Below are positions 9,501 to 37,396 of a DNA stretch of 50,153 nucleotides, in pieces. The notes beneath the pieces were generated by a model. That model was not told the DNA's origin. It was given only the letters and a program-made list of their open reading frames with translations, and made no database searches. Made by a program: the position numbers and the translations under genes. The stretch's first letter is position 1, and each line of letters starts with the position of its first letter. Origin of the DNA: Reclinomonas americana ATCC 50394 (lineage: Eukaryota); assembly GCA_048213135.1 (NCBI GenBank), contig PS015202.1:10935-61087 (forward strand), in the 5' to 3' direction.

Positions 9501-12500
9501 AAGCGCGCGACACAGGAGTACGGCCAGCGTCCGCACAGTGGCGTACACGAGACTGTACGCCAGGGCTGCAAAGAAAAAATGCACTTCCGTTCGGTGCGCA
9601 GCAAACAAAGCCGCCGTCGAGATACACAAACCTCGATTGAGCAACGGATGCAGGGGACGGCTCGAGGCTGCGCTCATGTCGGCAAATGTGCGTTCCATGG
9701 CGTGCCACGCCGACTCGGCTCCAACTCCCTGGCACGGACGATCGAGCAGCTCGGTCAACAGCTGGAAATCCCTCGGTTGCCACTGCACCGACAGCAAGTC
9801 CAACAGTCCCCCAGAGAGGCCATTGTGGTGGCCGTATGCATTCTTGCACCGCAGTTCATCCCAGAGGGTGGAGACGAGTGCGTGGAAGGTGGCCATGGTA
9901 GCAGATTGGCTCTCGTCCAACACCACCTGGTAGCAAGCAAAATGAGCACTCATCGCCGCTTACAGAATCAATCAATCACGCAGCAGCAGACGCACCTCGT
10001 CAGTGTTCGGGCCAAGGTAATGGACACCGGCCAGACTGCGACAGATCCACACACAGAAGGATGGACGCGTCGCGTGCATACTCGGAATGCTGCTGTCTGT
10101 GATGGTGCGATCCAACAGACTGCGCGTGGCCTTTAGCATGAACAGACGGTTTGCGAGGCGAGTTGAGCGATTCGTCATCACACGCAGAGCGTCGTCGACA
10201 TTGCCTGTGCCGGCAGGTGACTGGGCGTCACAACAGCGGACAGAGTCAAGAGCCACGAGGAGCACCAGTACTCACCCTTGTCTTGCACAAACTCCGTGAT
10301 GTTGGTGGCGATTTCGTGGCGCAGCGCTTCCAGTTGCGCTGCAGAGTGATTGGCAAACATGCGTCGCAGCTGTCCCCCATGATGAGATGGCTCGAGAAGA
10401 GGATACAGACTCTACAACCAGGTCACGACATGACATGATGCACACCTTGCGCTGCTGCGCCTGAATCAACGAGGAGTGGTCGCCGAACGGCGCATTGGCG
10501 GCCTGGAGCATGCCTCCCATTCAGCAGCTCACTAAATAACAGCCGCTTTCACCACAAACTCACCGACGTGGCTGGCGTCGCGGTGGCTTGTGCAGCGACC
10601 AACAGTGGATGCAGCTGCAAGTCCAAGAGGAACAGCAATCTGGCAAATGTGCATGTCAACACGTACTCCCTTGCGCACACAAAGCACATTGAGTACTGCT
10701 TATACCTTTTCTTGATGTCGGCACACACCACCTGCGTTGCGTCAGCGCTGCACACTGGTGTGAGACAACTCTAATTGCGCGTAACAAAAAAGGCGGTGAC
10801 GCACCGAGAGAGATCTCTTTCGCTCGTCAACACGGACTGCTGCATGTGAATCTGGCGTCGCAGCTGCGAGTCGACGACCACATGAGAATTGAGCGTGAAA
10901 TCTTCGTGCCAGTGTGCACGACTCACCTGCTCCGCCTTGATCAGGAGGCGCACCAACGCGTCGTTGGAGATGTCGTGCTGTCGACACGGCTCCATCGAGT
11001 CGGTGTGCTTTGCGAGGCAGGCAAAGAGCAGACGCACACACTCGTTCTCTGCGCACGACGCGAGGTGAGCGCAAACGGAGAATGTCACGATGCTCGCACC
11101 CGCCTTGCTTGCGTACCCTCATCACTGCTGCTGCCGCGTACGAGTGGCGGAAGACGATGGCGATGAGCCTCCGCAAGCCGGGAGTAGAACGCTGGTCGAT
11201 TCAGTAAGCAAGTGACACGAGAGATAGAATGGAAAAAGGTCACGTACCTCCGCCATCTCCCTCTCCCTTGCCGATTTCCACGAGCAACACGTGATCGACA
11301 TTCATGCTGGTCTCGAGGCTCGACTCAAACAGTCGCCATCTGGCCAACTTACGACCCTCCGTTGCGGGGGCCAGCGTGCCGCGCAGTGCCTGCAAGGAGC
11401 ATGCCGGTGAGTGGGCACACNNNNNNNNNNNNNNNNNNNNNNNNNNNNNNNNNNNNNNNNNNNNNNNNNNNNNNNNNNNNNNNNNNNNNNNNNNNNNNNN
11501 NNNNNNNNNNNNNNNNNNNNNNNNNNNNNNNNNNNNNNNNNNNNNNNNNNNNNNNNNNNNNNNNNNNNNNNNNNNNNNNNNNNNNNNNNNNNNNNNNNNN
11601 NNNNNNNNNNNNNNNNNNNNNNNNNNNNNNNNNNNNNNNNNNNNNNNNNNNNNNNNNNNNNNNNNNNNNNNNNNNNNNNNNNNNNNNNNNNNNNNNNNNN
11701 NNNNNNNNNNNNNNNNNNNNNNNNNNNNNNNNNNNNNNNNNNNNNNNNNNNNNNNNNNNNNNNNNNNNNNNNNNNNNNNNNNNNNNNNNNNNNNNNNNNN
11801 NNNNNNNNNNNNNNNNNNNNNNNNNNNNNNNNNNNNNNNNNNNNNNNNNNNNNNNNNNNNNNNNNNNNNNNNNNNNNNNNNNNNNNNNNNNNNNNNNNNN
11901 NNNNNNNNNNNNNNNNNNNNNNNNNNNNNNNNNNNNNNNNNNNNNNNNNNNNNNNNNNNNNNNNNNNNNNNNNNNNNNNNNNNNNNNNNNNNNNNNNNNN
12001 NNNNNNNNNNNNNNNNNNNNNNNNNNNNNNNNNNNNNNNNNNNNNNNNNNNNNNNNNNNNNNNNNNNNNNNNNNNNNNNNNNNACACACTTCACAGACGC
12101 ACATCATGACTGGCGACCTACCGAAGCCCACGACGCGAGCACCAACAGTGAAAGGTCTCGCGCGTGATCGATTGTCGCCGTGTCCACAGTCGGTGTGTGG
12201 CAGACGGCAGTCATCACGGTCGACGTGAGTTCTACCAGCCGATGCAGTGCGCGGAAAAATCTGCTTGGCGACTCGTGAGGGACACAGCAACGAAGAGGAG
12301 AGATGCTCACGGAATACGCACGATGCGTCAGCCGTGGCAACACCGGCATGCGACAGAAGTGGCATCGAAACGGCCAGGTACTTTCGCATGAAGCACACTG
12401 GCGATGAAGCGCGTTGCATGACCCGCGGCAAGTACGTCAGCTGCCTCACAAAAATGAGGACCAGTGGACGAAAAAAAGGAGAGTCGAGGCATTCAAACAC

Positions 12501-15208
12501 AAACACGCACCAGCTTGTCTCCAGTACCCAGCAGCCACTCCAGCTGTGTGGCGGCGACTCCAGCCACGACGACAAAACTCTCCGTCCAAGTGGCCCACAA
12601 TGTCGGCAGCGCAATTCTCTCAGTTCGAGTGGCCGCCAGCAGACGGGCCACACAACGGGAGAGGTCTTCCAGCAGCAGATCTCGCAGCACAAAGTCCGAC
12701 TGTGTCACACCAAGAGTTGTCGTGAATGAGCAAGTACGGTGACAGGCTTTCGCATCTTCATGCACGCTCCCATTACCTCTGCTTCAGACGGTTCGTCACC
12801 CTCACCGGGGCGGCGTCCAAGTTCCTTCTCTGACTCGTTGTCGGCGTTCTCCATGAACAGCCGGTGACAGGCCTCGATGATGGTTGCCGTGTATTGCGCG
12901 CCCAGCTGTGGCGTCTCCAACAACGCGTCTCGCACCTTCTCCGCAAGCAGGCGATGAACCATGTCGCTGATGCTGTCGTCTACAGTCGGGAAGTCGGCGG
13001 CGATCCGGGCCAGATACAGCAGTGGAGCCACTGGGGATCGACCGAAAATGATATTGGCACCCTGTGCGCAATCGTCGAGCACCGCAGCGCAGTCAGTGGC
13101 GCGAAAGAAACAAATCACGTGCTTCCTCTCTCTCTCTCGTGTACCATTTGCTGAAGGTTAACCAGTTCCTGGACAACGTTCTCAAACGCCTCGGCATCTG
13201 GACCTGCACTCAGGCCGCGCTTTCTGCACGCCACCCACAGATCCGCAAACGCCTCGCGCAGGATGGCTACAGAGTCACGAATCTACTTTTAGCCGCGCAG
13301 CTTGCAGAAGCAACACGGGTGATGCGAGCACGCACTTTGCCGGGCCGCGGGCCAGCACGCATCCTCTTCGGCCGCGCACCACAATACCGTCGTCTCGTCC
13401 GCGCGATGCGGACGTGCAACCTCGAGCACGCACAGTTCAGTCAAACGAACAACGGTGTCGAAGCTCCGGACGGCCGCCTGGTGCAACGCCGAACTCGGAA
13501 GTGCACCTGTGCCGGCCGGTGAGACACGAGATTGCCAGAAGACGCCACAAAAAGAGAGCAAACACTTCACCTGCAGCGGTGGCTGCACGGAACAATCGGC
13601 GCCGCAGCACATTGTGGAAACTGTCGAAGAAGCCGGCGAGCTCCACAAACGTGCGCGGGTTGATATCGTAGAGAAATCGTGCATGGGAAGCGGAGAGCGG
13701 GCGAGCGTCCAGCTCACTGGCCACCTTGATCTCGTCGAGTGAAGATGCCACAGAGTCCCAGGCTTGGCGCGCGTACCCTGCCCGTGGCACACGAGTGAGG
13801 GCATGTGCGCACAAAGACGACATGTGCTTTTTTGCCGACGCACAAATGAGAAGAACGAGAAGATTGAGGGCGCCGTGAGACGCAGGATCCGCGTCCTCGG
13901 AAGCGGATTCCCACTCCGCCAGCAACTGCAGCCACCAATCGCACATTAGATCGAGCGCACATATGAACAAAAGAGAACGCACACAGACCACAGTACCTCA
14001 GCCTGCGATTCTCGTGCCTCGTCACTGGCCAACTGCAGTGCACAATCGACCACACGCTGCTCCAGCGTATGACCGCCGGCGACATGCTCCAGTGTGCGCC
14101 GGAGCAGCAACACCAAGCTGCGCACCGAGCCGCACACGCCCAACGTCATGACCACCAGCGATTCGTCCAGGTCCGCGTCGGGTGGCACCCATCCGTGCCG
14201 CTGGCCGCGCGAAGCATTTTCGCTGACCTCAACCAGCATGTCTTCCACGCGAGCACGCAACGCCACGTCCACTGCGGCCGACTCCGCACCCTGACCGCGC
14301 AGCTCCGGCGCAGCCGCCAGCCCCGCCAGCGATTTCGACACCACGAACCGCTCCAGCGCTCCGTTGGCGTCCGTCGCCGCAGGTGCCAGCTGCGCGGCAT
14401 CAACAGCACGTCTCCACAAATCGGCCAGCGAAAGTGCCTGTGCGCCTCGCTCCACGCGCAGAAGCAGCGATCCTTGAACACCGCCAACCAGATCCATGTC
14501 TGGCTCAGACGGGTAGTCTTCGGGATTGAAATGCGCCCCCTCTTTGCAGGCGACAGTCATCAGCCCGGCGGCCACTTGTCGGCGCAAGTCGGCCGCACAG
14601 TACTCCACATGCCACAAATCATCGACACCGCCGACCAGCGGACGCTTCAGCGCGCGCAGGTTGTTCAAAGCCTGCAGCAAATCGCCTCCAGCAGCCTCCA
14701 CACGTCGCTGGCGACGACGCAAGTCCTCCTGCAGTGCCAGCGGCACCGTGTACGTGGCGCACAACTCCATCACCTCAGCGGCCTCACTGACACAGATGAG
14801 GAGGTGAGCAGGCAACCCACACAGAGAGCATGCCGCAGAGGTATCGCACCGCATGGCCTCCACGGCGGTATCATCGAATGACTTGAGACCGAGCGAGGCC
14901 AGCAACACAAAGTACGACGGATTGCTGCTTGCGCACATCACATGAGCATGGAAACAAAATTGAACTCTCTCTCACACACACACACACACTCACCCGCGCA
15001 TTGCGATGCTCACACCTGCACGCGCGCGCACACAGTGTGAGAGCGAGTCAAGGCCACACGCACACACACAAGCGGCGCAACTGACGAGAGGATCCTCCTC
15101 ACAGTTCCACCAGTTGTCACTGGCGCAGCGACGGGTCATGTCGAGGACGTGGACGCCGACAGTGCGTGGAGTCTCCAGCACCATCGTGTTGTCGCCTTCT
15201 GCCGACAT
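526..15208 (-). CDS. Giant multi-exon HECT-type E3 ubiquitin ligase (HERC-like C-terminal HECT domain; possible ankyrin-like segment near 3880-4280); spans gap 11421-12083
   Basis: HECT hallmarks in consecutive exons: FSVDFVGEGGVDGGGLTRELFSE, VELIPDGANTPVTWANLRDYIDLV, LEVALCGSPDVDVDML, LLLRFVSGQSR, catalytic LPASHTCFFTLDLAKYPS, and spliced end KAVLESKLRYAMMHTAAIDADQVASSAVFAEDD* (stop 526-528). The upstream minus-strand exon chain continues to a likely ATG at 15208. The HECT call is firm; the single-gene extent is less certain. Confidence 0.8.
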
Positions 15209-15582: not shown

Positions 15583-16749
<1,167 letters not shown>

Positions 16750-17050: not shown

Positions 17051-18567
17051 TCACTTGCCCTTCTTGTACGTCTGCTTGGGGAAGAGATACTTTCCGGCGT
17101 CGTCCTCCACCAGCTGCCCGTTGGGCACACACGGCCCGTTCGGGGGGTAGATCGGGCGCCAGATCTCCTTGCCGTCGTTGGTGTGCCACGGGCCACCCTC
17201 GGGACCCACGGACACACGGATGCCTCGTGCCACCGGCAGGCAGATCCAATTGCCAACGGTGGGGGCGTAGGTGTAGAAAGCCTTGTCGGAACCAACAACC
17301 CACAGCGCACCAGTCGCGCCGACGCCAATGTCCAGCGCAGCACCCGGCAGCTGCTGCCACTCGCCGAATTTGATCATGCGCCAGATGCTGTTGTCGCCGA
17401 GTACGGCAAACACATTGTCGTCGGCGTCGGCGGCGATGCGCTTGACGTTGGCGGCCTGGGGATCAACTTCCTTCTTGAAGGTCTTGCGGTCGACGCGCAC
17501 CACTTTGCCGCCATTCATGTGCGGGTACCAGATGTACCGGGAGCCGACGGCAATGTCGATGGCCCAGTCGATGCCCTTCACCTCGGTCCACTTGCCGCTC
17601 TTCTTGTTGTACGTGATGATGTGCTTGCTATCATCAAGCGTGGCGTATGGCGTGCCGTCCGGAGCGACGGCAATGTTCTGCGCACGACCCTTGACGTCGT
17701 AGCCGATCCACGACCCGGTCTTGTGGACAAACTGGAAGCTGTGCAGCGTGTGAGTGTCAGCATCACCCTTCATCGCATCGACAGCAGCGACTTGATAGCA
17801 CTCAACATGTTGAAGTCGACACCGACGACAAAGACCTCTGGCTCCTTGGTGTTGCGTTTCTGCTGCACGGCAATGTCGACTGCACCGCCTGGAAGCTGCT
17901 CCCACCTGCAGGAACAATTGTATCAGGAGATGCTCCATGAGTAAGCCTTGGGGATGCCTCACAAAAGACGCACCGGTAGTCGAGGGGAAGCGGTTCGTCG
18001 TCCTTACACTTGTTGCCGTAACCGGCTTCAGCAAACAAACTGCAAAACAAGGAGAATGAGTGGACTCTCTGCGTGCACGACAGCGGCGGGACCACATCCA
18101 CTCTTCGTCTCACCCAGCGTTCTCCTCCTCCACCTCGAGCTCGGCGCGCATCGCCGCCAAGTCAAGCAGAGAGTGCTCGAAAGTTGTGCCTTTCATGCCT
18201 GTCAGCTGCCCATTTCCCATCGATACAAGAGAGGCTGCAGGAGCACGAGTTAGTGATCGAGAGGAGCGCGAGTGGGATCCAGACAGAGAGAGACTGATGC
18301 GCGAGTGACAAAAGAAGTGATCATGACGGCAGTGGCACCAAAAGAGACGAGAGAAACGTGAGCGTGCAGACAGTGTGAGAAGAGAGCAATGGACGAGAGG
18401 CAGTGCGTGGAAGAGCGACAAAGAGGGAGAGAGAGAGACTGATGAGAGACAACGAGAGTTCACTCACCAAACTCAGAGTCAGTTTCCATCATAGTGGCGT
18501 TCGCCCAGTCGCCGAATGCCACCAAGGCTATGGCGCAGAGGGCGACCACAAGCAAGAGGCGAGTCAT
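17051..18567 (-). CDS. Secreted tectonin/TECPR-repeat beta-propeller, lectin-like protein
   Basis: First exon gives signal peptide MTRLLLVVALCAIALVAFGDWANA. About six tectonin-like repeats: WEQLPGGAVDIAV, WTEVKGIDWAIDIAVG, VKRIAADADDNVFAVLGDNSIWR, WQQLPGAALDIGVGATGALWVVG, RVSVGPEGGPWHTNDGKEIWR. Confidence 0.82.
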
Positions 18568-18824
18568 GGGATGACGAATACTCGAGAACCACGCAACGTG
18601 TTCTCACGCAAAAGATGAAAAAGCGTGAGCAATTGCAATAAGGGCGGGAAGTAACGGTCGTATATTTCCTTCCATCGCTGCGATTTCGCTGGCGTTCGAG
18701 CACAGCAGGATGGACTGTACAAAGCCGTGAGACCTGTCATGAAACTGCGACGAGTGCGGCCACGTGAGAGGTTACGAGAGGCAGCATTCGCTCGGCGCGT
18801 GGTGTACAAGTTCGAAGTTCGGAT

Positions 18825-21087
18825 TCATTCGCTGTCGTGTGCGTGGGAGTGGTTGGCACTGGACTCCTCCGGTGGCCCCATGTCCGACCACCGTTCGTGG
18901 TGTGGGTTGAGCTGGCAGCCGGGCGCACTGAATTCGGTGGCCTTGCAGCATGTCCACTGTGCATTGGGGTGAGCGTACTGACAAGCGCGCAAGAATGTTG
19001 GTCGGAATACGCAGCGTGCTGTGCAGGTGGGAGAAATAAGAACACCACTCCATGGACATGAATGCAACACAAGGATATGTGAACGCAACTTGCTGCAGTC
19101 AACATCGTGGCATGGAACAGAAGGTGAACAAGCGAGTGAGAAACACAGGAATTCGACTCGTTTGTCGGAAAACATGAATTAATCGCGGCGCAACAATCTG
19201 CAAACGAGAGCGCGTTTAGTCATTAGCTGCGGTGCGGTTGTTCAGTGTGATGCGAGTCACGCAACGGTGAGCTGCAATCGGAATCGACGTGAACAGCAAC
19301 GGGAAGAAAGTCAGTATCAACTGGAGGGCATGCGCACTGGCATGACCACGCAGTGAATGGTACTCACGTGCTGTGAATGCGACAGCGTGAGTGACATGCA
19401 CGGAGGGTACGAAAGACACAGGCACTCGTACCTTCTGTGGAGGTGTGCGGGTACCAAGAGGGGGCGGAGGGAACAGTTGTTGAGAAGCAGCTTTGTAAAA
19501 TGCTGATATAAAGAAACTCACGCAACGAGCTGCGATCGGCACAGGTGAGTGAGACAGTGAGAGGCAGAGCTGACAGCGAAGACAAGCAAACGCAACAGGC
19601 TAGAGAAGGCAAGACAGGGCGATCGCAGACAGCAACAGCAGAGAGGGTGTCAGATGGAGTGCAGACTCGAGCAGGGTTGCGCCCACCACAAACCAACTGC
19701 GCCACCAACACACAAGAAAGGTGAGTGGACATTAGCGTTGCAAAACAAAACAGAGCAAACACCACGCACATGCTGTTGGCGATCCAGTTGCAGCAGCAGC
19801 GATGGGAAGTCAGTGCGAGAGCGCGAGAGTGTGACGAGCACACACGACATACCGTCTGCGATTTGCTCGACACAGTGAGCATGACAGCCACAAAACACGA
19901 AGCAGAACATGAGGAATGCACTCACCGGCTACCGGCAGCGAAGCGCATGCACAAACGAGAGGCAGTTGATTCTTCAGTCTGCAATCAACAACACCAACAC
20001 ACCGCCTACAACAGACTCACATACTGAAGCAAACAAGCAGGCAAATGTGAGTGAGAGGCAGACGACAGAAAAATGCTGCACGGCACACACAAACGACGCA
20101 ACAGCTCCAGGGTGGAAACGGCACTCCTCGGAAAAGTCGCAGGCCATCAGCCGACAGTTTCGACACTGGTACAACTGCGTGGCCATTGTCGGTCACCACT
20201 CCACCGTCATACAACATCCGGGATGGGTCTACACATACCTTGCTCTTCTCTGCTACTTCCTCGGAGCGCACCCGGACCGCAGTCATCTGCACCACACGTT
20301 CCATCACAACAACAAAACACCACTCTTCAACAAACAACTGAACGCACTTCATCGCGGATTTGCCGCCGCTCTGTCGCCTCCTCCACCTGCATCTTACTGA
20401 TCTGTGCGCGCCCCTCACATCAGCAAGTCATACGCGGTCACACCCTTCGTTCGTGGATCACCACCCACCATGGCCTGGATCCGATCTCGCTCCTCGTACA
20501 TTTGCCTCTCGCGCAACATCAGCCGCGCCTGTACAGTCTCAACCGACTCTTTCGCCGTCTCCAAACCCCCAACAAACCTGCTCTCCACCTCCTGCTCACA
20601 CGTCACTTGCCGGCTGCCAGTCTTGCGACAAGCGAACGACACACACCTGAAGTCGCGACTCCACAGTCTCGCGTCGCCCTCGCTCCTCCTGCGCGCACAT
20701 CTGCGTGTCAGTCACAGTGACCACTGTCACACACGTCACCATTGTCTCTCATCGCACGCAACAGCGAGCTCGCGTGAGAGTCGAGTGCGATCGTCATCGA
20801 GCAGCTGTTGCACGTTTGAGCGTGTCACACACACACACTCTCTCACACACGCGCGCACTACCTCCACAGCCTTTGCCAAGAGCTTCATACGATGCGCGTC
20901 CTCCTGTCGCGCCTTCTGCAGCGCTTCGTGTGCCTATTCGTTGCACACAGTGTCAACAACTTCCACTCAGTCACTGATGACAATGATCACTCGCCTGTTT
21001 CAACTCGCTCAGCTCCGCAAAGCACTGCTCCACGTGGCGCACCAGTGCCTGAATGTGCTCAGGAGTCGGCACGTGACTCGCCTCCAT
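18825..21087 (-). CDS. 22-exon coiled-coil protein with C-terminal Cys/His zinc-finger (CxxC..CRFHPG..WTCC..PGC..H, Btk/CHORD-like), ~243 aa with all exons included
   Basis: Exons 20995-21087, 20862-20933, 20763-20804, 20647-20700, 20469-20591, 20348-20401, 20239-20286, 20103-20174, then 13 microexons, then 18825-18956. All join in frame without stops. E/R/Q/K-rich helical N-terminus; LYQCRNCRLMACDFSEECRFHPGA...WTCCKATEFSAPGCQLNPHH. Confidence 0.85.
18957..20102 (-). other. Tandem array of 13 single-codon (3-nt; one 6-nt) microexons separated by 59-102 nt introns
   Basis: Recurring YAG|NNN|GT(GAGT/GCGT/ATGT/TGCG..) unit about every 60-105 nt, with pyrimidine-rich sequence and often a CTCAC/CTGAC/CTAAT branch-like motif upstream of the AG. 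Confidence 0.85.
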
Positions 21088-21155
21088 CTTCTCTCTCTCT
21101 CACACACGTCGCCGTCCGATCTGTCCTGATCTTCTCTCGTCTCTTGCGCGAAAGA
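21088..21155. promoter_or_regulatory. Putative bidirectional promoter / overlapping 5' region
   Basis: Only 68 bp between divergent start codons (21087 on -, 21156 on +). Confidence 0.55.
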
Positions 21156-22238
21156 ATGCTGTTGCATCTCGTTGACCTGCTGCGATCACGACGCATTGTG
21201 CTTGCCTCTGGTGTGTGTGTGTGTTACACAAGTTGCCAGTGTCTTGTGTACTGCTCTCACACACAACACACAGCTTCTCCTCGACGTCGCGAGATTCTGG
21301 AGAACATTGGCTTGCGTTTCGAGGTGGTGCCGAGTGCCTTTGCAGAGGACTTTGACAAGTTGCGTACGATGCGTGTGCAAGTGTGTCACAAGAGCATGCT
21401 GACAGCAGACAGACAGACGACGATTTGCGACTCCGCACGACTACGTGAAGGAGACTGCGCGCGCAAAGGGACTCGATGTGGCCAAGAGACTCACGCAGGT
21501 CTCTTGTGCATCTCACTGCGCTGTGTTGGTATGTGTGGTTCACTCTATGTGTGTGTGTTGGTGCATGCAGCCTGCGGACATGATCATCAGTGCGGATACG
21601 ATTGTGGTGGTGGCGGGTGGTAGCAAGGATGCAGATGTGACTGCCAACGGGTACCGTGTGTTGGAGAAGCCGGCGAATGCCGAGGATGCATGCCGCATGA
21701 TTCGGGAGCTCAGTGGGCGAGAGCACTTGGTCATTTCGGCTGTGGTGCTCATCTTTCCGCGGAGTGGCAGCGCCGGTTTCGTGTTTGTGTGGTATGCAAC
21801 GATCGAGCAGGCGCTGCGAGCTGACACAGTGTGTGTTTGTGGTAGAACCGGAGACTGTGGCCTTTGCGGAGGAGACGCGTGTGCGGTTTGCGGAGCTGAC
21901 GGATCGGGAAATCCGAGCGTATGTGGCGTCGGGCGAATCACTGTTGCGCGTGCTTTTCCCTTTAGCAGTGCGGGTTGCGTGCTGAATGTGTGCATGCAGA
22001 GACAAGGCGGGTGCGTATGGATACCAGGGGCTGGCGGGGACGCTGGTCAGCGCCATTGCTGGCGACTATTACAATGTGGTGGTTCGTCGCCTGCTGGGAG
22101 GCCTTCTTGCGCCTGCTGTTGTTTGCTTGTGTCTCACCGCTCGCGTCACAGGGCTTCCCGCTGCATGCTTTCTGCAAACGGCTGGCGACGATTGTGGAAG
22201 GCGCAGATGCGCAACGGCTGCTCGGCATCCGTTCATGA
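21156..22238 (+). CDS. maf: Maf-family nucleoside triphosphate pyrophosphatase (YhdE/ASMTL-type, likely dTTP/UTP)
   Basis: Spliced motifs IVLASASPRRREIL, ETARAKG, IISADTIVV, VLEKP, LSGREHLVIS, GESLDKAGAYGYQG, GDYYNVVGFPL. Confidence 0.93.
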
Positions 22239-24129
22239 ACGTTGGGATGGTGACGTTGGCGCGTAAATCGAGCACACTTCGCGCGCGCGACACAATTTCT
22301 TGTTGGTTACATCGGTCCTGGTGTGGGTGCAGTGGTGGTGGTGGTGGTGGCGGGAGCTGGTGCTCCTCCTCCTGTTGTTGTTGTCGTTGTTGGTCTCGCA
22401 TGTGTGGTGAGTGGGGGGGGGTGTCACGTGTGGCCGTTGGAACGCGGAAGGCGCCAATTGATTTCTTTTCGCGCGCAATGTCGTTGTGTGTGATACTCTC
22501 GGTACCCAATCACCATCAATCCTGCAGTTCAGCGGATTCCCTGTGCCTCTCTCTGTGCGTCAAATCATCAGTCAATTGCCTTCTCTCCCTCTCTCCCTCC
22601 TCTTCCGTGTTGCCACACTCGCGCTGTCAGACAAATCTTTTTTCGTGGCCTGGGTTTCTGTCGAGCCACGCACATTGTGCTCTCACCTCGCACAACACAT
22701 ACTCTCTCTCTCTGCCCATGTATGTCACCCTCCTGTGCACGTGAGTCTCGTGTCTTCGTTGTGGGTGACGGAGACGCGTCCGCGTTCGAGTCTGTGGTCT
22801 GAGGGCGGGAAAAAGTGGGACTCGTAGTTGCCTCTTTTGATGAACGGCTTTTTTCCCGTCTCCCACCTCGCTTCTCTCGCTTCTTTTCCTTGGCAGGCAC
22901 AGTGCAGGTGGGGAATTATGCAAACCAGGCAATCCAGACACGCGTGCGCGTGGCGGTATCCCCCAAAAGAAGCGCTGCCGTTAAAAATGGTTGAAACTGC
23001 GTCGAACACACATGCACGACCGCACGGCAATCACGGACGGAAAGCAAGGGTATCTCACGAATACGCGTGCAGGAGAAGAGAGACCGACTTGTACTCTCAC
23101 GGAATCGCGATGGCGGTATGTCGATGTCGATGCGCGCCAAAAAAAACGACCGGTCGATATCGCGCGCGCGCGTGTCGACGTCAGTTGCGACCGTGCCTGT
23201 GAGGCAAGTGGAGAGAGGAAGGCAGAGAGTGAGTGTGAGGGAGAGGAGAGAAAAAAACGGCCGTGGCACGCTCAGTCGCGGGTCGCGCGCGCGCGCGCGC
23301 GCGCACATACGCACCGTTGGTCAATTGTCCCTGGTGATTTTTTCTGGCGCCACTTGCTGAGAGCGCGTCACTCGCTCGCACTCCCGCCCAATCAACACAC
23401 GCACACACACACAGACACAGCACGAGTGACACGTCTCCTCTCCAGTGTGTGCGGTGAGTCGCCTGCATGTGCGCGTGTGAGTGAGACATGCAATGAGTGT
23501 GAGTGTGAGTGAGTGAGAAAAACTCGCGCGCGCGCGTGATACCGTTGCAAGCGACTCTTTTTTCACTCCACGTCATCCTCTCTGCTTGTCACACGCACAC
23601 ACACTGCTCTGTGTACTCTCTCACTGTCGCGCGTGTGTGAGTGAGGCGAGAGTGTTGTTTCTTTGTGAAATATATGTTGTTTTTTTGGAGGGAGAAACGT
23701 TCGGGATAACGATCACTTGGGCCCAACGGTACCATTGACGCGTGCTGCACAACACACTCTCTCGCTCTCTCTTGCTCACTGGCACACATGTGACACACGC
23801 GCGCGCTCTCTCTCTGTGTCACACACATCAATGTGCGTTGCGTGTTTCGTCTGCCTTTGTTTTTTTCATGACACACTCACGCACCTGTTTGTATTTTTTG
23901 CGCGCGCTTCCTGTGTGTGTGTTTTCGTCACCAATCTTCTCACCGTGTCTTTCTCTCTCTGCACGTGTGTGTCGTGCACACGCTCTCTCTGTGTCACACC
24001 ATGTGCGCGCGAGTGTTGTTCGTGTGCTCACCAAGTGCGGTCTCTCACAGATTCTAACCCGGAGTACGCGCGCCTTTTTTGTCTTCCCACTCCCCCGCGC
24101 CCTCGCACTTCCCCCGTTGCTGAGCAAGA

Positions 24130-25574
24130 ATGGAGGATACGCTGTCGACAACACCGCCGCACAACCGAGGCACATTGGTGTTTGCCGGTGGCACCATTGT
24201 GGTTCGCACCGCCGGCGATGACTTGGCCAACAAGAACCGCCACCTCCACCACCGAGGTTTGTCGATAGTTTGTTTGTATGCTTGTTTTTTGTTGCTGGCG
24301 ACTCACTGCACACACACGCACAGAGTATGCGAGTGGAAGGATAGGCTACGAGGACATGGAGAGCGACGAGATGCAGCAGAGGAGAGTGGCGAGCCCGGCC
24401 TCTGGTGCTGGCGGCGATGCGCTGATGCAGTTGGCAGCGTCGGTGCCGCGCAAGTCGGTGCCGCGTATCACGAGTATGCTGAGCATGGATGGCCTGCTGA
24501 ACCCGGTGGAGAGCAAGCCGCCGGTGCAGCCGACGGTGATGTCGAGAAGTATGGGTGGCAATTTGTTGCTCGATCACTTGCTCAACAAGCCCATGTCGCC
24601 GCCGACGCTGCCGAGCATGTCGAAGCGCTTCACTGCCGATGGTTTTGTGGTGCCGGACCCTGTGCCGCGCCAGCCGCCGACGTTGCCGCCGATGATGACG
24701 GTGCGGCCGCAGCTGATGTTGCCGCCCCTGTCGCCGCAGTCACCGTACGCGCTGCTCGGCCACTCGCCCGCCTTCTCGTCGTCGTCGTCGTCGTCGTCAT
24801 CTTCATCGTGCATGTCGGGCATGATGTCGTCGCCCGATAGCCCGCTGCTGTCGTCGCCGGTCTCGATGTCGTCGCTGCTGGCGTGCACGCCGCCGCCGAC
24901 GTCGCCGTCGTATGTTCAGCAGCTGTTGTTTTCTGCCTCGCGGCAGCAGGCGGTACCGCCACCACCAGTGTTGCCCATGCCCATGATGACCACAACACCA
25001 ACACCAACGACAATGCAACTGCTGGCGCAGCAGCAACAGCAGCAGCAACAGCAACAACAACAACAACAGCAGCAGCATCAAAAGACCATGGCCATGCAAT
25101 TGGCGGCCGCACAAGCAGCAGCAGCAGCCGCAGCCGCAGCCGCCGCCGCTCCACCGCCACCACCACCACCACCACCACCAGTTTCACGGCCACGACACGA
25201 GCAGCACTCACAGCATCGGCAGCACCAGAGGCAGAAGCAGCGAGAGCGGCAACTGCAGGAGCAAGCGCAAATGCCGGCACCGATGCAGCGACCGCGGTCG
25301 CAGCAACAGCAGCAGCCACAACAGCAACAGCAGCCACAGCCACCACCACCACCACCAGCACCAGTACCACAACAACAACAGCAACAACAACAGGAGAGTC
25401 GTCGGCAAGAGACTGCCCCGCAAAAGCCACAGCAGCGCGAAGCACCTTCATCATCATCGTCACAACTGTCGACGCTGCAGAGTGTGCTTGGGCGTCGCCA
25501 GCCGATTGAGGTGACGTTGCCGCGACGGAGACGGCCAGCCACCTTGGGTGATCCAGGACTGAGCTCGCCGGCGG
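24130..25574 (+). CDS. Low-complexity Q/P/S/A-rich protein, possibly a regulator; runs into gap 25575-26412
   Basis: ATG 24130, GT-AG intron about 24258-24323, then a long open exon with polyS, polyQ, polyA and polyP tracts. No recognisable domain in the visible part. Confidence 0.65.
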
Positions 25575-26869
25575 NNNNNNNNNNNNNNNNNNNNNNNNNN
25601 NNNNNNNNNNNNNNNNNNNNNNNNNNNNNNNNNNNNNNNNNNNNNNNNNNNNNNNNNNNNNNNNNNNNNNNNNNNNNNNNNNNNNNNNNNNNNNNNNNNN
25701 NNNNNNNNNNNNNNNNNNNNNNNNNNNNNNNNNNNNNNNNNNNNNNNNNNNNNNNNNNNNNNNNNNNNNNNNNNNNNNNNNNNNNNNNNNNNNNNNNNNN
25801 NNNNNNNNNNNNNNNNNNNNNNNNNNNNNNNNNNNNNNNNNNNNNNNNNNNNNNNNNNNNNNNNNNNNNNNNNNNNNNNNNNNNNNNNNNNNNNNNNNNN
25901 NNNNNNNNNNNNNNNNNNNNNNNNNNNNNNNNNNNNNNNNNNNNNNNNNNNNNNNNNNNNNNNNNNNNNNNNNNNNNNNNNNNNNNNNNNNNNNNNNNNN
26001 NNNNNNNNNNNNNNNNNNNNNNNNNNNNNNNNNNNNNNNNNNNNNNNNNNNNNNNNNNNNNNNNNNNNNNNNNNNNNNNNNNNNNNNNNNNNNNNNNNNN
26101 NNNNNNNNNNNNNNNNNNNNNNNNNNNNNNNNNNNNNNNNNNNNNNNNNNNNNNNNNNNNNNNNNNNNNNNNNNNNNNNNNNNNNNNNNNNNNNNNNNNN
26201 NNNNNNNNNNNNNNNNNNNNNNNNNNNNNNNNNNNNNNNNNNNNNNNNNNNNNNNNNNNNNNNNNNNNNNNNNNNNNNNNNNNNNNNNNNNNNNNNNNNN
26301 NNNNNNNNNNNNNNNNNNNNNNNNNNNNNNNNNNNNNNNNNNNNNNNNNNNNNNNNNNNNNNNNNNNNNNNNNNNNNNNNNNNNNNNNNNNNNNNNNNNN
26401 NNNNNNNNNNNNAGGGGGCCGCTGTTTGAGTGTGTGAGAGAGTGAGTGATCATGAGTGTGTCAGTTGCGTGTGCGCGGGAGGGTGACACGTGCCTGCGGA
26501 CGCCACGCAGGCGAGCAGCGCGATGCTGAGAATGGCGAGGAGGGTCGCTCGGCGCATGAGAGACAAAAAAGCGAAGAGGTGGTGGAGTCGCTGAGAGGCG
26601 TTTTTTTCCGAATGACGAACGTTCCCTTTTATTCCATTTCCGGCATGATTTCGAACATGACGACCGAGTGTGTGAGTGGAGGCGAGGGGTGCTGCGGCTG
26701 GAGGGTGGCGGTCGATGCATGGAGTTCCGGATGCAGAGGGTTCAGAAACAACAGGGAACGAATGCAACTGTTGAGATATCTTTGACTCATCACGGTGAAA
26801 CGAGCACAGATTCTCGCGAACAAGAAAAGGAAGAGGAGACATCGCGTAATCAGCGGACAACGCTTTAGT

Positions 26870-29800
26870 TTATTCGTCCTCCAAGGTGTCGGTGAAATCA
26901 GGCAAGAATGAACCCAACACTCGATACAGCATGTCGGGGATCTGCGTCTCGTGACCTTCGACCGTGACCGCATGGTCGGCCAACGCGCCTCGTCGCTCAT
27001 TTGTCACTGACCATACGCGAAGTGTCTTGTCGTAACTCCCACTCAGCACATGCTGACCGTCGGGAGTGACAGCGACTGACATCACCGCACCAGTGTGTCC
27101 CTCCAACCGTCGTACCTCTTCTCCAGTCGCCAGTGACCACACTCGTACTGTTGAATCATGGCTACTGCTCACAATATGATAACCATCAGAGGCGACGGCG
27201 ACGGATGACACCACATTTGTGTGTCCCTCCAACTGCAGCACTTCTTCTCCATTCAACAGTGACCACAGTCGCACTGACTTGTCATTACCTCCACTCACAA
27301 CCAACTGACCATCGACGGTGACAGTGACTGACATCACCGCGCCAGAGTGCCCATCCAATCGGTATAATTCGTCACCACAAGTCAGTGACCACACCCGCAC
27401 AGTTTTGTCCAAGCTTCCGCTCAGAACGTAAAGCCCATCGGGAGTAATGGCAACAGACATCACAGCCTGGATGTGCCCCTTTAACTGCAGCACTTCTCCG
27501 CCACTCTCCAGTGACCACACCCTCACTGTCTTGTCCCGACTCCCGCTCACGATACATTGACCGTCGGGTGTGACAGCGACAGACGACACACAATCGGTGT
27601 GCCCTTCCAACCGCAACACTTCTTTCCCATTCGCCATAGACCATACTCTCACCGTCCTGTCATCACTCCCACTCACAAGGTGCTGACCATTGGGAGTGAC
27701 GGCAACAGACAGTACTCCTCCATCATGGCCCTCCAACCGTCGTACTTCCTCGCCACTCGCCATTGACCACACTCGCACCGTCTTGTCACTACTCCCGCTG
27801 ATAATGCGCTGACCATCTGGAGTAAACGCAAAATAGTTCACAGCTGCCGTGTGTCCCTCCAGCCGTCTCACTTCTTCTCCTCTCGCCGTGGGCCACACTC
27901 GCACAGTCTCATCACTACTCCCACTAACAACACCATGGCCATCGGGCGTAACGGCGACTGAGTACACCCCTCCACAATGTCCCTCTAACCGGCGGACTTC
28001 TTCCCCATTCGCCAGTGACCACACGCGTATTGTTTTGTCATCACTTCCACTTACAACGCGCAGACCATCGGCAGTGAAGGCGACAGAGTTCACTACACCA
28101 GTGTGCACCTCAAACCGTCGCAATTCTCCATCACTCGCCATAGACCACACTCGCACGGTGTGATCCTCACTCCCACTCACTGCGTGCAAACCATCAGGAG
28201 TGATGGCGATGGACAGTACTGAATGGGTGTGTCCCACCAACCGTCGCACCTCATCGCCACTCGCCAGTGCCCACACTCGGACAGATTTGTCCTCACTTCC
28301 ACTAAGAATGTGTAGACCATCGGGAGTGACGCTAACAGCCAGCACCGGTGCAGTGTGTCCCTCCAACCGTCGCACTTCATCTCCAGTTGTCAGTGACCAC
28401 ACTCGTACAGTTTTGTCCTCACTTCCACTCACAACGTGCTGACCATCGGGAGTGACGGCAACCGATCGCACCCGATGAGTGTGTCGAAATCGTTTTAACT
28501 CCTCGCCAGTCGCCATAGACCACGTTCGAATTGACCAGTCCTTGCTTCCACTTACGATATACACCCCATCGGGGGTAACTGCCACAGCCAACACTGAACC
28601 AGTGTGGCCTTCTAGTCGGCGCACCTCCTCGCCACTTGCCACCGACCACACTCGCACAGTCTTGTCATCACTCCCGCTCACAATGAACTGTCCATTTGGA
28701 GTCACCGCGACAGACATAACGCACTCAGTGTGACCCACCATTGGCTCCCTCGGCCACTTCACACCCGCCACATCTGCCTCTCTGAAATCCGCCTCCCTCG
28801 CATACGCCATGCACACATTCACCCCTCGCAAATCCGCCCCCCTCCACACCGTCCTGTGCATCACCGCATCCCTCAAATCCGCACCCCTCACTCGCACTCC
28901 CGACAGGTCTCGCCCACTGAACGACACTTGTGCCACACACAACACCGTCGCTGCATTCGCTGCCGCCGTCACCAGTCGCTCCTCATCCACCTCCATCGAC
29001 AACTCAATCACCTCCCACAATCTTGCTTGCAATCGAGGAGATCGTCGCACCACCTCGGCCACCTGCTCCACCAGTGATGGTCTGTCGTTCAGTAGTCGCA
29101 CAGCCAACACATGCTGTTGCACATCTTGCATCGTCAACCTCCTCTCTGCATCCCACGTCTCCCACGCAAACACATGCCGTGCCACACAGTGCTCCAGCAA
29201 CGACAGATGTACGAATCCCCACTGCGTCGTCCCATACCGTCGCACAATCGGGCAGCACACTCGGACATGTTGATTTCTGCGACCAAAAAACTTGTCAAAC
29301 GGTCCCTCTTCCACTCTTCGAATATCAAGTGGCGCACCGCCGAACTCTGCAATGTCTTCTTCGAACGCACGCTCCTCTGACACAGCTCGCACCACATTCC
29401 TGTCATGCATCAACCGTGCCAGTCCCTCACAGAATGCCAGACACGTTTCCTCACTCGGCACACGCTCCGCGCCCAGACGCGTCTGCCTCTCCTGCTCCCT
29501 CACAATCCACTGTCGATTGAATCGATCAAACACATTACACCGAGTCGGTCGCTGCACACCACTCGCCACCAACTGTGGCAACACACGAGCTACCACTGCC
29601 AACAGGAACGGATTCGACACCAGCGCATCTAGTCCATGCACAATCTCCAGTGCACGAATGTACTCCTCGGCAGTCGACCATCGCACATCACCATCATCGT
29701 CAGCATCTCCACCGACTTGCACCAGTCGCGAAAAGTACTCCTCAATCTGCTCCTTGCTGAACGGTGCAACATGCCGCTCCATCAGCTGCTGCATACACAA

Positions 29801-31583
29801 TTGTCCGCGTGCATCCACCGGTGCAAACAACCGTCGATACTGCGTCACACCACCCAATGCCGTCAGAGCGTAATCACCACGACAGGTGATAATCACCTTC
29901 ACATCGCGACACACATCCAGCTGGTTCTTGACAAACAGATTCACACCACGATACAACTCATCGTACCCGTCAAGCAACAACAGCAGCGGTTCCTCCTTCA
30001 GCCGTCGCACATCCTCCTCAAGGCCCAACTCGGGTGACAGTCGCTCCAGGGCCTCCTCCAGCAATCGCTCATCGGCATTGCGCAGAGCTCCAAGAGGCAC
30101 ACGCACAGGCACTCGTCTGCTCTCTCTCGTCTGCCACTGTCGCCATGCTCGCTCAGCCAGCACCGACATGGTGGTGGTCTTGCCGGCTCCACTGTTGCCA
30201 AACAGCACCAACACACGCTGCGTGGTGTTGGTGTCGGTGAGGAAAGCATCCACTTCCGTCAACAAATCCGTCATCTTCTCACTCGATGAAACGTCACGAT
30301 CACGTGAGCACAGCAATGGCACGTACATCTGCATGTCCTTGTGCATGCTCTCGTCGTGCTGATAGAAGGAGAGCTCACGCACCGCCAGTTGATGCAGTCG
30401 CTCCTCGAAGGTGCTGACGCTGAAGTCGAGATGCCGCGCATCACGAATCCGCGTCGCGAAACCAGTCATCGTATCGGCAGGCAGCTGCAGCTTGCCAAGG
30501 AGCGATAGGAACACACCGTCCACACTGAGATACTCTTCCACACGGGCGTCGGTCCATGGACATAAACCATGAACCAAATCGTTCCGTATTGCGCGCAACT
30601 GCTCCAGCGCCTTCCGTTCATCAACATCGTCAATCAGGAGTAGTTTGCGAACGTCATCCAGAACTAGGCCGCCATACAGCATGATGGAGATGAGTGCAGT
30701 CGTGTCGAATGCGTTGCACGGAGGGTCGGATGAAGGGTCAGTGTTGAATGCATTGCGCCAGGCCAACACCAGTGGTTGCACCTCCTTGAATAGCTTGACT
30801 TGCCATCCATTCACTGGAGCATGCCGCGCACGCCAGGCCTTCACTGCCGCCGCATCCATACCAGCAGGTGTGAATGCCGCCACCCAAGCCCGCACATCAA
30901 AGTCGGGATGATCACGACTGAACTGGGCCAGAGTGCGTTGACAGCGCAGACGCACGGCCTCCTCCACCACCTCAAACGCCATGTTGATGCGCTGCGAATT
31001 GATCATGCTGTGCTTAAACAAGGTGTCATGGTCGAGATGTGGTACGGAGAAGCGCCGACAAGCAAGACGAACCGCATCTCTCGCTGACTAGCGCTGCGTG
31101 AGCATGCAGTGAGCATGCAGTGAGTACCATGACCAGAGGGAGACAAGCAAGGCACGCACGCAGGCAGACACACGCGCAAACCTCTCAGTGCCACTCTTTG
31201 CACTCGGAGACAGCAGTACGACACCAAGTGTCACACGGACGACGAGATGAGTGGATAAGTTGATGCCCAGAATGCGAAGCGAAGTACCACCACCCTCCTC
31301 CAAGTCATACGGTACCGGCTTCTCCACCCCAACAATTTCCACCGCCTCATCTCCACTCTTCTCCCGCAGCAAGCGTGTGGCCTCGCGCAGCAGGTCCGCG
31401 AGAGTGGACATGGCCGACATGCCCTCCACCACCACCGACAGCGATGAATCATGCGCCGCACTTACGTGCACAGAGAACTGCGATACCACACAGACACACG
31501 ACATACACCATGCCGTGAGAAGACAGAGTTGCACTACAGCACTCACTAAGTGGCATGTGAGTTCACACCCGACTCACCGACAT
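26870..31583 (-). CDS. NLR-like STAND protein: ubiquitin-like domain + HEPN (DZIP3-like) + NACHT + pentapeptide repeats + 14 WD40 repeats
   Basis: Exons 31578-31583, 31182-31477, 31073-31093, 26870-31007. Walker A GNSGAGKTT; Walker B LLLLLDGYDE; KVIITCR; NPFLL; FVHLSLLE; FSGRDLSGVRVRGADLRDA pentapeptides; 14 GH..W repeats; HEPN RxxxxH motif RNDLVH. Confidence 0.92.
27010..28742 (-). repeat. 14 tandem WD40 coding repeats, ~126-bp period, high internal similarity
   Basis: Repeated GEEVRRLEGHxxxVxSVAVTPDGxxxVSGSxDKTVRVWS; DNA motifs GACCACACTCG and CCCTCCAACCG recur on the + strand. Confidence 0.93.
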
Positions 31584-31848: not shown

Positions 31849-32827
31849 NNNNNNNNNNNNNNNNNNNNAGCAAAGACCAGTCAACGGTGTGGCTTGCGTG
31901 TGTATATGTGTGTGTGCGTGTTGTCAACACAAGCTTGTTGCTATTGTGTTGGTGTGTGAGTTGTCTGCACTCCACCACAGACGTAAAAAAACGATGAGGG
32001 GCCACTGGACATAAAACGACATCTTGCAAACCACCAAACGAAAAACGCCACACACAGATACACAGACACACTGGAGGCTTACAGTTTACACAACAGCACT
32101 ACATCGTTGTGATGAGAATGAGTGTGTGCTTGTGTGTGCGGTGAGCACATGAGTCGTGAGTGAGAGCGTGTGTGTGTTGGCGCGTGCCGTTGAGTGAGTC
32201 ATCGGACAGAGCAATTTTTTGTTCGATGGAGAAAAGATAAGACGAACGACAACAGCGTGAGCATTGCGGTCCGTGAGAGATGGAGTAGAAATGAGGGGAC
32301 TTTGGCTGCTGAGGCGTTGGTGCAGTTGCTGGAGGAATACAAAAGCATTCGTCGACAAATATTACATTTTTTGCGAAATATATTTAGCGTTCGGACGTCG
32401 GCCTCCAACAAGCCGGCAAGGGAGCACTGGCGATCGAGCAGGTCCGCTTTCCTGCTGATCCGATTGTGCGAGTCGACTTCGCGATTGTTCAGCGATCGTG
32501 ACATCGATATCGCAATATCGATGCGTCGACGTCGGTACTTCGAGATCATGCTTCGCAGTGGCTTGCAGACGGCATTACCAAAGTGCGGGAGAGATTTCAT
32601 GCTTCAGTGCACGCTGCGCGCGTGCACGAGCACACCTGCAATCGACTTCAAATGATCCTGAGGCGCGCTGAACACACACTCACACACTCACACGCACGCA
32701 CGCACACACACACACACACACACACANNNNNNNNNNNNNNNNNNNNNNNNNNNNNNNNNNNNNNNNNNNNNNNNNNNNNNNNNNNNNNNNNNNNNNNNNN
32801 NNNNNNNNNNNNNNNNNNNNTACTCAG

Positions 32828-35264: not shown

Positions 35265-35337
35265 NNNNNNNNNNNNNNNNNNNNNNNNNNNNNNNNNNNN
35301 NNNNNNNNNNNNNNNNNNNNNNNCGTCGTCGTCGTCG

Positions 35338-35433: not shown

Positions 35434-37364
35434 GTGGCCTATCACGCGTGAGCGTTGTCTCCGCAGTGTACCTGTGCTTATGGTGGACGAGGCTGACAGT
35501 GCATGCGTTGCAGATGCGATGTTGCGTGTGTGTCTGTGTCACATAAATTCCGACTGATGCTGACGAAACACGCACACACACTCTCTCGCACTCTCAGGGC
35601 GACACATGCGCATGGCCTTTGCTGTGATACCGCTGTGTGTGTCGATACTAGTGCTGTGCGGGCAGTGCATTGCGCAGGTTTGCCTCTTGCATTGGTGTGC
35701 ATTGATGATACCCGCAGCACTCAGTCACTCTCACTCGCCACACAGTCACTGTTCGCTGTGCGCTCGTGGCAGTCGACCTCACACTGGCTCTCGATTCTCG
35801 GCTTCCCCGTGCTCAGTGCCTCCTCCACACAGTGGTGGCGCATTGTGTTGTTCACTGTTCCCGACTTTCTCATTCTATTGGCGGCGATCGTGCTGCTGGT
35901 GTTTGTACGGCAAGGCATCATTGCGCGTCGAGAGCTGTCCAAGCTGGCACTGGCCGCCAATGCACCTGTGCTGCCTGCGGGTGTGGAGGTCGTTGAGGGC
36001 GTGATGGTCGGCGAAGGGGAGGACGACGACGATGATGATTACGATGACGATGATGATCATGGTGGTGGTGGTGGGGGTGGTGGTGACGGCGATGAGGACA
36101 CGGATGAGGGGCACATGGACAGCTTCTCAGACGATGATCATCACCACGTTCTCATGGACGATGATGGAGACGACGGGCGCGGCGGCGGTAGTGTGCGCAC
36201 TGGCGACGATTACGGAGTGGCGATTGATGTGTTTGGCGATGCGGGCGGCGGCAGCGTGACGGGTGAATCGGAGGCAGCCAGGCGGAACCGGCGTGCATTG
36301 GCGCGGCGATCGGCGGCCATGCAGCGCCAGATTCGTAAGCATGCTCTGCGTGCTGCGGCGTACAGCAGCGACGATGCTGCCGACGACTATCACCGCCATT
36401 TGGCGCAGTCGACCGGCGATGTGCGCATCCCGCTGTTGCGTGCCGGCGCCTCTGCTGCCTCCGTGGGCGTCGCCGGTGGTATGGACAGTGTGCATCACAG
36501 CCAGACAGCTCCGTTGTTGCTCTCCGACGAGGCCGTGGTCGATGTTCTCGCCCCGCCACCCACCAGTGGAACGGGAGGCGCCACTCTGGCCCTTGTCGGC
36601 GTGATGGCTGCCGATCCGGGCACCGATGAGCCCGACGGTGGCTTGCGAGCTGCGCACAGCCGCGCATTTGGTGCCGTGTTGTCGGTGATGGCGCTGGTGC
36701 TGCTGTGTCTGTTTGCGTGCATATCACCGTCGGTGCTCGGAATGCCACTGGTCGCCGTCATCGTCTACGAAATCTGCTGGGGTTGCTTCCGCGACGAATC
36801 CATCACCAGTCACATGCGGAATTGGCGCACGCTGTTCGATCAATGGTGNNNNNNNNNNNNNNNNNNNNNNNNNNNNNNNNNNNNNNNNNNNNNNNNNNNN
36901 NNNNNNNNNNNNNNNNNNNNNNNNNNNNNNNNNNNNNNNNNNNNNNNNNNNNNNNNNNNNNNNNNNNNNNNNNNNNNNNNNNNNNNNNNNNNNNNNNNNN
37001 NNNNNNNNNNNNNNNNNNNNNNNNNNNNNNNNNNNNNNNNNNNNNNNNNNNNNNNNNNNNNNNNNNNNNNNNNNNNNNNNNNNNNNNNNNNNNNNNNNNN
37101 NNNNNNNNNNNNNNNNNNNNNNNNNNNNNNNNNNNNNNNNNNNNNNNNNNNNNNNNNNNNNNNNNNNNNNNNNNNNNNNNNNNNNNNNNNNNNNNNNNNN
37201 NNNNNNNNNNNNNNNNNNNNNNNNNNNNNNNNNNNNNNNNNNNNNNNNNNNNNNNNNNNNNNNNNNNNNNNNNNNNNNNNNNNNNNNNNNNNNNNNNNNN
37301 NNNNNNNNNNNNNNNNNNNNNNNNNNNNNNNNNNNNNNNNNNNNNNNNNNNNNNNNNNNNNNNN

Positions 37365-37396
<32 letters not shown>

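Follow-up and report, generated by a model that had tools for sequence, protein, structure and literature searches.

We describe a gene of Reclinomonas americana, a flagellated jakobid, in which 14 successive residues of one protein loop are encoded by 13 tiny exons, each of them bounded by introns on both sides. The gene is located on a stretch of 50,153 nucleotides (nt) from strain ATCC 50394 (NCBI GenBank assembly GCA_048213135.1, contig PS015202.1, positions 10,935 to 61,087 of the forward strand), which was analysed as a whole and is called the window in the following; all coordinates refer to the window. On the minus strand, the coding region occupies positions 18825 to 21087 and consists of 22 exons and 21 introns. 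The joined exons comprise 720 nt, corresponding to 239 codons and a stop codon, and the model was established by comparison with a database protein, P0001, which is introduced below. An array of 14 short introns alternating with 13 microexons lies at positions 18957 to 20102, where it separates the two halves of a predicted zinc module at the C-terminus of the protein. The 14-residue core of a 15-residue loop of this module is encoded by twelve exons of 3 nt and one exon of 6 nt.

The array is flanked by exon 8, which ends with ...CRFHPGA at position 20103, and by the last exon, which opens with WTCC at position 18956. The 1146 nt in between can be divided without remainder into 14 introns and 13 microexons; the boundaries were re-derived by a script and agree with the exon model and with the parse tests described below. 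In the direction of transcription, microexon 1 is TAT (20021-20023), which corresponds to Y183 of P0001, and microexon 2 is CCG (19926-19928), which corresponds to P184. Microexon 3, ACG (19853-19855), encodes a threonine, the sole loop residue differing from P0001 (A185). The following ones, likewise assigned from the sequence and from the comparison of the exon model with P0001, are CAT (H, 19770-19772), TTG (L, 19694-19696), CCT (P, 19597-19599), CTC (L, 19527-19529), AAG (K, 19432-19434) and CAC (H, 19368-19370) for microexons 4 to 9, CTCACC (LT, 19266-19271) for microexon 10, which is the sole two-codon exon, ATT (I, 19195-19197) for microexon 11, CAA (Q, 19090-19092) for microexon 12, and CAC (H, 19016-19018) for microexon 13, whose downstream intron is of the GC-AG type with the donor GCTGCG. 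None of the 13 is a stop codon. All of them are immediately preceded by YAG and followed by G[TC], and none exceeds 30 nt, the size limit by which microexons are defined. The introns measure, again from 5' to 3', 79, 92, 70, 80, 73, 94, 67, 92, 61, 96, 68, 102, 71 and 59 nt (range 59-102, mean 78.9). Their acceptors are YAG in all 14 cases (12 CAG, two TAG), and their donors begin with GT in 13 cases and with GC in the remaining one. A branch-like motif YTNAY, mostly CTCAC, CTGAC or CTAAT, was found within 60 nt of the 3' end in 12 of the 14 introns, and all are rich in pyrimidines (C+T), with a pyrimidine fraction of 0.52-0.69.

The most direct evidence that these exons are joined in a mature message comes from a protein collection. 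When the last exon (43 residues) was used to search 5.8 billion proteins for longer sequences, a single match was obtained. This protein, P0001, has 239 amino acids (aa); it bears the TransDecoder-style name EC799531.1.p1 with the description 'ORF type:complete len:240' and belongs to the EukProt set EP00694 of R. americana. Open reading frames (ORFs) named in this way are, as we assume, called on contiguous transcript sequence, and from the format of the accession we take EC799531.1 to be an expressed sequence tag (EST) or complementary DNA (cDNA). P0001 contains the segment ...CRFHPGAYPAHLPLKHLTIQHWTCC..., which runs across the loop. The 22-exon model can be aligned with P0001 over 239 aa without a gap, and 232 of the 239 residues are identical; for the last exon, the identity with the C-terminus of P0001 is 95%. 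Within the loop, all 14 microexon-encoded residues occur in P0001 in the same order, and 13 of them are identical. Because P0001 carries the full loop in this order, the array is genuine, and every microexon is included in at least one mRNA from this organism or a very close one. The seven differences between P0001 and the window are scattered over the whole protein, and T185A in microexon 3 is among them; this one-codon exon thus changes between close strains or species as ordinary coding sequence does.

In order to assess how readily such an arrangement arises by chance, complete parses were enumerated by dynamic programming, allowing introns of the form G[TC]...YAG that are 45-120 nt long and exons of 3 or 6 nt without a stop codon. 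The actual 1146 nt admit 128 complete parses. Not one of 2000 random regions generated by a first-order Markov model could be parsed completely, nor could any of 377 real, N-free control stretches of 1146 nt taken from both strands of the same window. Among the 128 parses, exactly one yields a peptide of 14 residues that departs from the loop of P0001 at only one position, and this is the parse given above, which had been proposed in an earlier reading of this DNA made from the sequence alone. In a scan of both strands of the 50-kb window for chains of YAG-NNN-GT units, only the array formed a chain of at least four; it comprises nine links, and its sole interruption is the 6-nt exon. Elsewhere, the plus strand reached a maximum of two, and 200 random windows did not exceed six. 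A contiguous coding sequence for the loop was not found in the six-frame translation of the window. The parse of the array is not a product of chance.

The remainder of the gene is also rich in introns. Exons 1-7 (21087-20995, 20933-20862, 20804-20763, 20688-20647, 20591-20469, 20401-20348 and 20286-20239), which were located by means of a tblastn search with P0001 and by the joined model, are 93, 72, 42, 42, 123, 54 and 48 nt long, and introns 1-7 have lengths of 55-74 nt, all in phase 0. The first half of the zinc module comes from exon 8 (20103-20174, 72 nt; tblastn and joined model). The last exon (18825-18956; 43 codons and TGA) encodes the second half, as indicated by a Pfam BTK hit and by the match to P0001. 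Upstream of the array, seven introns interrupt the 546 nt of coding sequence of exons 1-8, and the microexons contribute 42 of the 720 coding nt of the gene. Phase 0 applies to all 21 introns, and the length of each of the 22 exons is divisible by 3. Two introns are of the GC-AG type, namely intron 1 (20934-20994, donor GCGAGT) and the last one of the array (18957-19015, donor GCTGCG); the gapless alignment with P0001 fixes the junctions of both. The donor of intron 3 is GTTGCG, a hexamer which occurs in the window 27 times on the plus strand and 34 times on the minus strand, versus about 10 and 12 times expected from base composition. With respect to composition, the introns of the gene fall into two classes: introns 1-7 are rich in G+T (pyrimidine fraction 0.39-0.48, 55-74 nt), whereas the 14 array introns are rich in C+T (0.52-0.69, 59-102 nt).

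The sequence-only reading mentioned above had anticipated this architecture to a considerable extent. Every coordinate, triplet, donor and acceptor that it listed is present in the sequence; the product it predicted for full inclusion is matched by P0001, with 13 of 14 loop residues identical, their order kept and no gap over 239 aa; and the preservation of the reading frame by each microexon holds and extends to all 22 exons. A scan for clustered YAG-NNN-GT units, which it had recommended for the genome, singled out the array in the 50-kb window as the sole chain of four or more.

By its sequence, the protein is composed of a coiled coil and a C-terminal, divergent CHORD/Btk-like zinc module, whose central loop is encoded by the microexons. 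AlphaFold2 (AF2) predicts confident helices for residues 9-77 and 90-158. P0001 and the last exon match the Pfam family BTK (PF00779) at threshold, with 24.1-24.5 bits versus a cut-off of 24, and the match covers only about positions 11-26 of the 30 profile positions; for the last exon, it comprises positions 12-26 with an E-value of 2.5e-5. A PH domain, the usual neighbour of the Btk motif, was not found in P0001 by Pfam. An exhaustive HMMER search among 1.84 billion representatives (E <= 0.001) gave three matches, P0001 itself and two distant homologues. The first of these, P0002, has 222 aa and is a JGI/IMG gene call on one contig of 1039 nt, which suggests that its loop is encoded as a contiguous ORF. 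The second, P0003, has 317 aa, originates from the EukProt set of Thecamoeba quadrilineata and contains LysM and UBA-like domains. In the three-way alignment of P0001, P0002 and P0003, the skeleton of Cys, His, Trp and Gly residues is invariant, and no gap occurs between G181 and W197: the loop between HxG and WxCC has 15 residues in P0001 and in both homologues. This agreement argues that the full-length loop is the functional form. Scans of metagenomes with P0002 and P0001 detected no relative.

A profile built from these three members matches the CHORD domain of CHORD-containing protein 1 (2yrt_A) with an E-value of 1.2e-6 over profile positions 116-176, and it matches RAR1 weakly. The Pfam family CHORD (PF04968) gave no match in P0001 at E <= 1; P0002 and P0003 reached 15.0 and 16.9 bits, respectively, both below the cut-off of 24.6 (E 0.01-0.04). 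In a protein atlas, the nearest cluster (score 0.92) carries the label CHORD on 19% of its members, and among neighbouring entries a minority of members is labelled CHORD or BTK; we regard these assignments as leads only. The module shares with CHORD domains (PF04968; 2yrt, 2xcm) and with the Btk motif the arrangement C-x2-C ... C-x-(Y/F)-H-P-G ... W-x-C-C ... G-C-x4-H. It differs from the solved CHORD domains in that the loop from HPG to W is five residues longer. Moreover, a single module follows a coiled coil, in place of tandem CHORDs, and a PH domain such as that of Btk is lacking.

The gene is arranged head to head with a Maf-like gene on the plus strand (21156 to about 22250), in which the Pfam family PF02545 was detected on two exons with E-values of 7.8e-5 and 7e-12. 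The two start codons are about 68 nt apart, and this spacing suggests a very compact, putative bidirectional promoter. The introns of the Maf-like gene are short, too; one is in phase 1 (about 21211-21273) and one in phase 2 (21359-21416), so that phase 0 is not a genome-wide rule. The second of them, with its donor at position 21359, uses the GTTGCGT type, and the junction keeps the Pfam Maf profile collinear. As this donor type is shared by both genes, the unusual donors are a property of the organism and not a sign of pseudo-sites.

At greater distance, an uninterrupted ORF of 1405 codons on the minus strand (26873-31087) codes for roughly 14 WD40 repeats in the C-terminal half of its product (Pfam WD40, E 9e-155) and constitutes a long intron-free stretch amid an intron-dense region. 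The intergenic DNA upstream of the Maf-like gene contains simple-sequence tracts of the CTCA/CACA type and of the type (GC)n (about 23150-23650, minus strand). Seven runs of N with lengths of 20-838 nt (11421-12083, 15708-16036, 25575-26412, 31849-31868, 32727-32820, 35264-35323 and 36849-37364) make the GC content of the window look lower in a composition profile, and the long AT-poor ORFs at 11349-12704, 24269-26437 and 35497-37422 are artefacts of such runs. A search of the window with Rfam for RNA genes, such as snoRNAs, hidden in introns gave no match at the gathering score; at E <= 1, the region 18700-21200 contains one weak mir-194 match (19 bits versus 52), which is located outside the array.

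Taken together, these findings are very probably explained by an ordinary spliceosomal gene of extreme architecture, in which autonomous short introns are removed sequentially and all 13 microexons are included to give the protein of 239 aa. Each array intron would be self-sufficient, equipped with a donor, a branch-like motif, a pyrimidine tract and a YAG of its own. Since every intron bears its own signals, we infer that splicing proceeds by intron definition: splice sites would be paired across introns, and the length of an exon would be irrelevant to its recognition. The intron density of the gene and the short introns of the Maf-like gene make it evident that the organism recognises short introns as units. 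The donor consensus at exon positions -3 to -1 would coincide with the whole microexon, and the preceding AG would lie at positions -5/-4. As the contacts of the donor thus cover the microexon and approach the AG, two adjacent introns can hardly be bound simultaneously, and their removal is probably sequential. Most simply, the order would be 5' to 3', each acceptor being used as it is transcribed. Such a stepwise scheme would resemble recursive splicing, with the difference that one codon stays behind at each step. The lengths of 12 of the 14 array introns are not multiples of three, and the two remaining ones carry in-frame stops, so that the retention of any of them would shift the frame or lead to a stop codon.

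Several points weigh against this explanation. The transcript evidence consists of one ORF, considered at the level of protein and derived from DNA that differs from the window (in 7 of 239 residues), and the cDNA status of EC799531.1 rests on the format of its name and on the conventions of EC-prefixed accessions and of TransDecoder. Nine donors are far from the usual consensus GTRAGT, eight of the 21 being GTTGCG and one GCTGCG. For the zinc domain (residues 157-239), the predicted local distance difference test (pLDDT) score of AF2 is below 50. Finally, the order of intron removal is purely our inference.

The first competing explanation supposes that various combinations of microexons are skipped, in a regulated or stochastic manner, and that many loop variants of the zinc module arise from one gene in this way. 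This was the preferred interpretation of the sequence-only reading, which envisaged residue-by-residue skipping with 8192 possible patterns. The architecture would permit it: as all microexons, and indeed all 22 exons, are multiples of three, skipping keeps the frame, and with neighbouring donors and acceptors 130-200 nt apart it is sterically possible. However, P0001, the sole sequence at the level of transcripts, shows full inclusion, and a near-match search and a search for shorter proteins with residues 150-239 found no variant or shorter ORF of the gene besides P0001 in the collection of 5.8 billion proteins. The equal length of the loop in both distant homologues argues that this length is constrained, and the array introns, all with YAG and G[TC] and most with a branch-like motif, look as expected of constitutive introns. 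We therefore consider combinatorial skipping improbable. Were the array indeed a splicing-based editor of the zinc-binding loop, which we rate as a slim chance, selected residues, among them the three histidines of the loop, would be lost by skipping, and a single gene would give rise to loops of graded length; a loop with five residues fewer would have the canonical CHORD spacing.

In summary, the array and its full-inclusion product, as conceived in the sequence-only reading, stand, whereas the combinatorial diversification does not find support. The resemblance to Btk/CHORD-type motifs was also borne out, by the BTK match at threshold (24.1-24.5 versus 24 bits) and by the profile match to 2yrt_A (E 1.2e-6). 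The comparison of loop length among homologues, which it had proposed, gave 15 residues in two of two cases, equal to the length expected for full inclusion, and the alternative it had named, extreme constitutive intron packing, fits the inclusion of all microexons in P0001 and the conserved loop length.

A second competing explanation, which we regard as quite unlikely, assumes that the copy in the window is silent or decaying and that P0001 belongs to a paralogue or a strain whose loop is encoded contiguously or with fewer introns. It would account for the seven residues out of 239 at which P0001 and the window model differ. These differences are spread over the whole protein, though, as expected of allelic or strain divergence, and decay would not have kept 14 of 14 YAG acceptors, 14 of 14 G[TC] donors, 13 of 14 codon meanings in order and an intact frame of 239 codons with its stop. 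That the 1146 nt are one intron, excised in one piece or in recursive steps with no remainder, the YAG-NNN-GT sites being ratchet points or chance occurrences, is very improbable: although the sites resemble recursive splice sites, in which an acceptor is closely followed by a donor (PMC13149111), a direct join would delete the 14 residues present in P0001 and leave one residue between HPG and W, versus 15 in both homologues and 10 in solved CHORD domains, and an intron of 1146 nt would be an outlier relative to the 55-74 nt of introns 1-7.

With constitutive inclusion as the favoured explanation, the origin of so many introns in so short a segment has to be considered. The 14 phase-0 introns occupy 14 of 15 consecutive codon boundaries. 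As the length of the loop equals that of the distant homologues, it did not grow by duplication of units consisting of an intron and a codon; rather, the introns appear to have been inserted into a pre-existing coding stretch. A tandem-repeat origin was rejected, as Tandem Repeats Finder detected nothing in 18500-20700. After trimming the splice cores, pairwise local alignments of the 21 introns gave a mean score of 13.8, which is barely above the 12.2 of shuffled sequences; the best pair, I8 and I14, shares 19 of 21 nt. An introner-like or transposon-derived family was discarded as well, because the 21 introns of the gene cannot be recognised as copies of each other, and no recent introner burst is visible among them. 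Two peculiarities of the gene, the uniform phase 0 of its introns and the frequent use of GTTGCG as a donor, may be connected with the origin of the array. The array could record a locally iterated gain of introns in steps of 3 nt, for instance by spliceosome-mediated reinsertion beside an existing junction. If true, introns would have been gained here by a new mechanism.

It is instructive to compare the array with known systems. Microexons of 3-15 nt are known in animals and plants, and a constitutive exon of 1 nt is present in APC11 of Arabidopsis (PMC8831610, PMC4674806). For plant microexons, the introns on either side have been proposed to be excised one after the other and not simultaneously (PMC8831610). 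The exons of the array resemble these plant and animal microexons in being below the size required for exon definition, in having canonical sites and in being included in frame (PMC8831610, PMC4674806). In contrast to those microexons, which are isolated, the densest case noted being two adjacent exons of 5 and 12 nt in rice (PMC8831610), 13 occur here in a row, 12 of them with a single codon. Animal exons of 3 nt are mostly alternative and under the control of neuronal factors (PMC13149111), whereas constitutive inclusion in a unicellular protist is favoured here.

The micro-exon genes (MEGs) of Schistosoma mansoni contain tandem symmetric micro-exons of 3-81 bp, alternating with introns that reach 5 kb, and encode secreted proteins (PMC10526429). 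The array shares with them the tandem arrangement of frame-preserving micro-exons, and the size range in MEGs includes exons of 3 bp (PMC10526429). Unlike in MEGs, the introns of the array are 59-102 nt long, and the product is a protein with a coiled coil and a zinc module, the loop of which is conserved in length. The coding sequence of MEGs lies mostly in micro-exons, whereas here 42 of 720 coding nt do so. The ratchet sites of recursive splicing in Drosophila and vertebrates leave no nucleotide behind and serve the removal of introns of more than 10 kb (PMC13149111). Common to both systems is that an acceptor is almost directly followed by a donor and that removal is likely stepwise, each step generating the 5' exon of the next one (PMC13149111). 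In the array, however, 3 or 6 nt stay between AG and G[TC] and are present in the product, and the segments are shorter than 105 nt. A literature search among the full texts accessible to us found no description of consecutive one-codon exons or of microexons in Reclinomonas or other jakobids. Thus, the array is an extreme and apparently unreported form of spliceosomal microexons and not a new mechanism.

If all 13 microexons of this run are spliced in, the spliceosome can work through back-to-back units consisting of acceptor, codon and donor, which implies pure intron definition and an obligatory order of splicing in this lineage. The array thereby constitutes a natural substrate for studying the minimal spacing between 3' and 5' splice sites. 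The placement of introns at 14 of 15 codon boundaries, within a loop that predates them, goes far beyond the high density found in the rest of the gene (7 introns in 546 nt). ORF finders and standard spliced aligners would drop 14 residues of a conserved domain, and similar arrays may be hidden in other intron-rich genomes of protists. The example concerns a jakobid-like lineage, for which the structure of nuclear genes has been little described.

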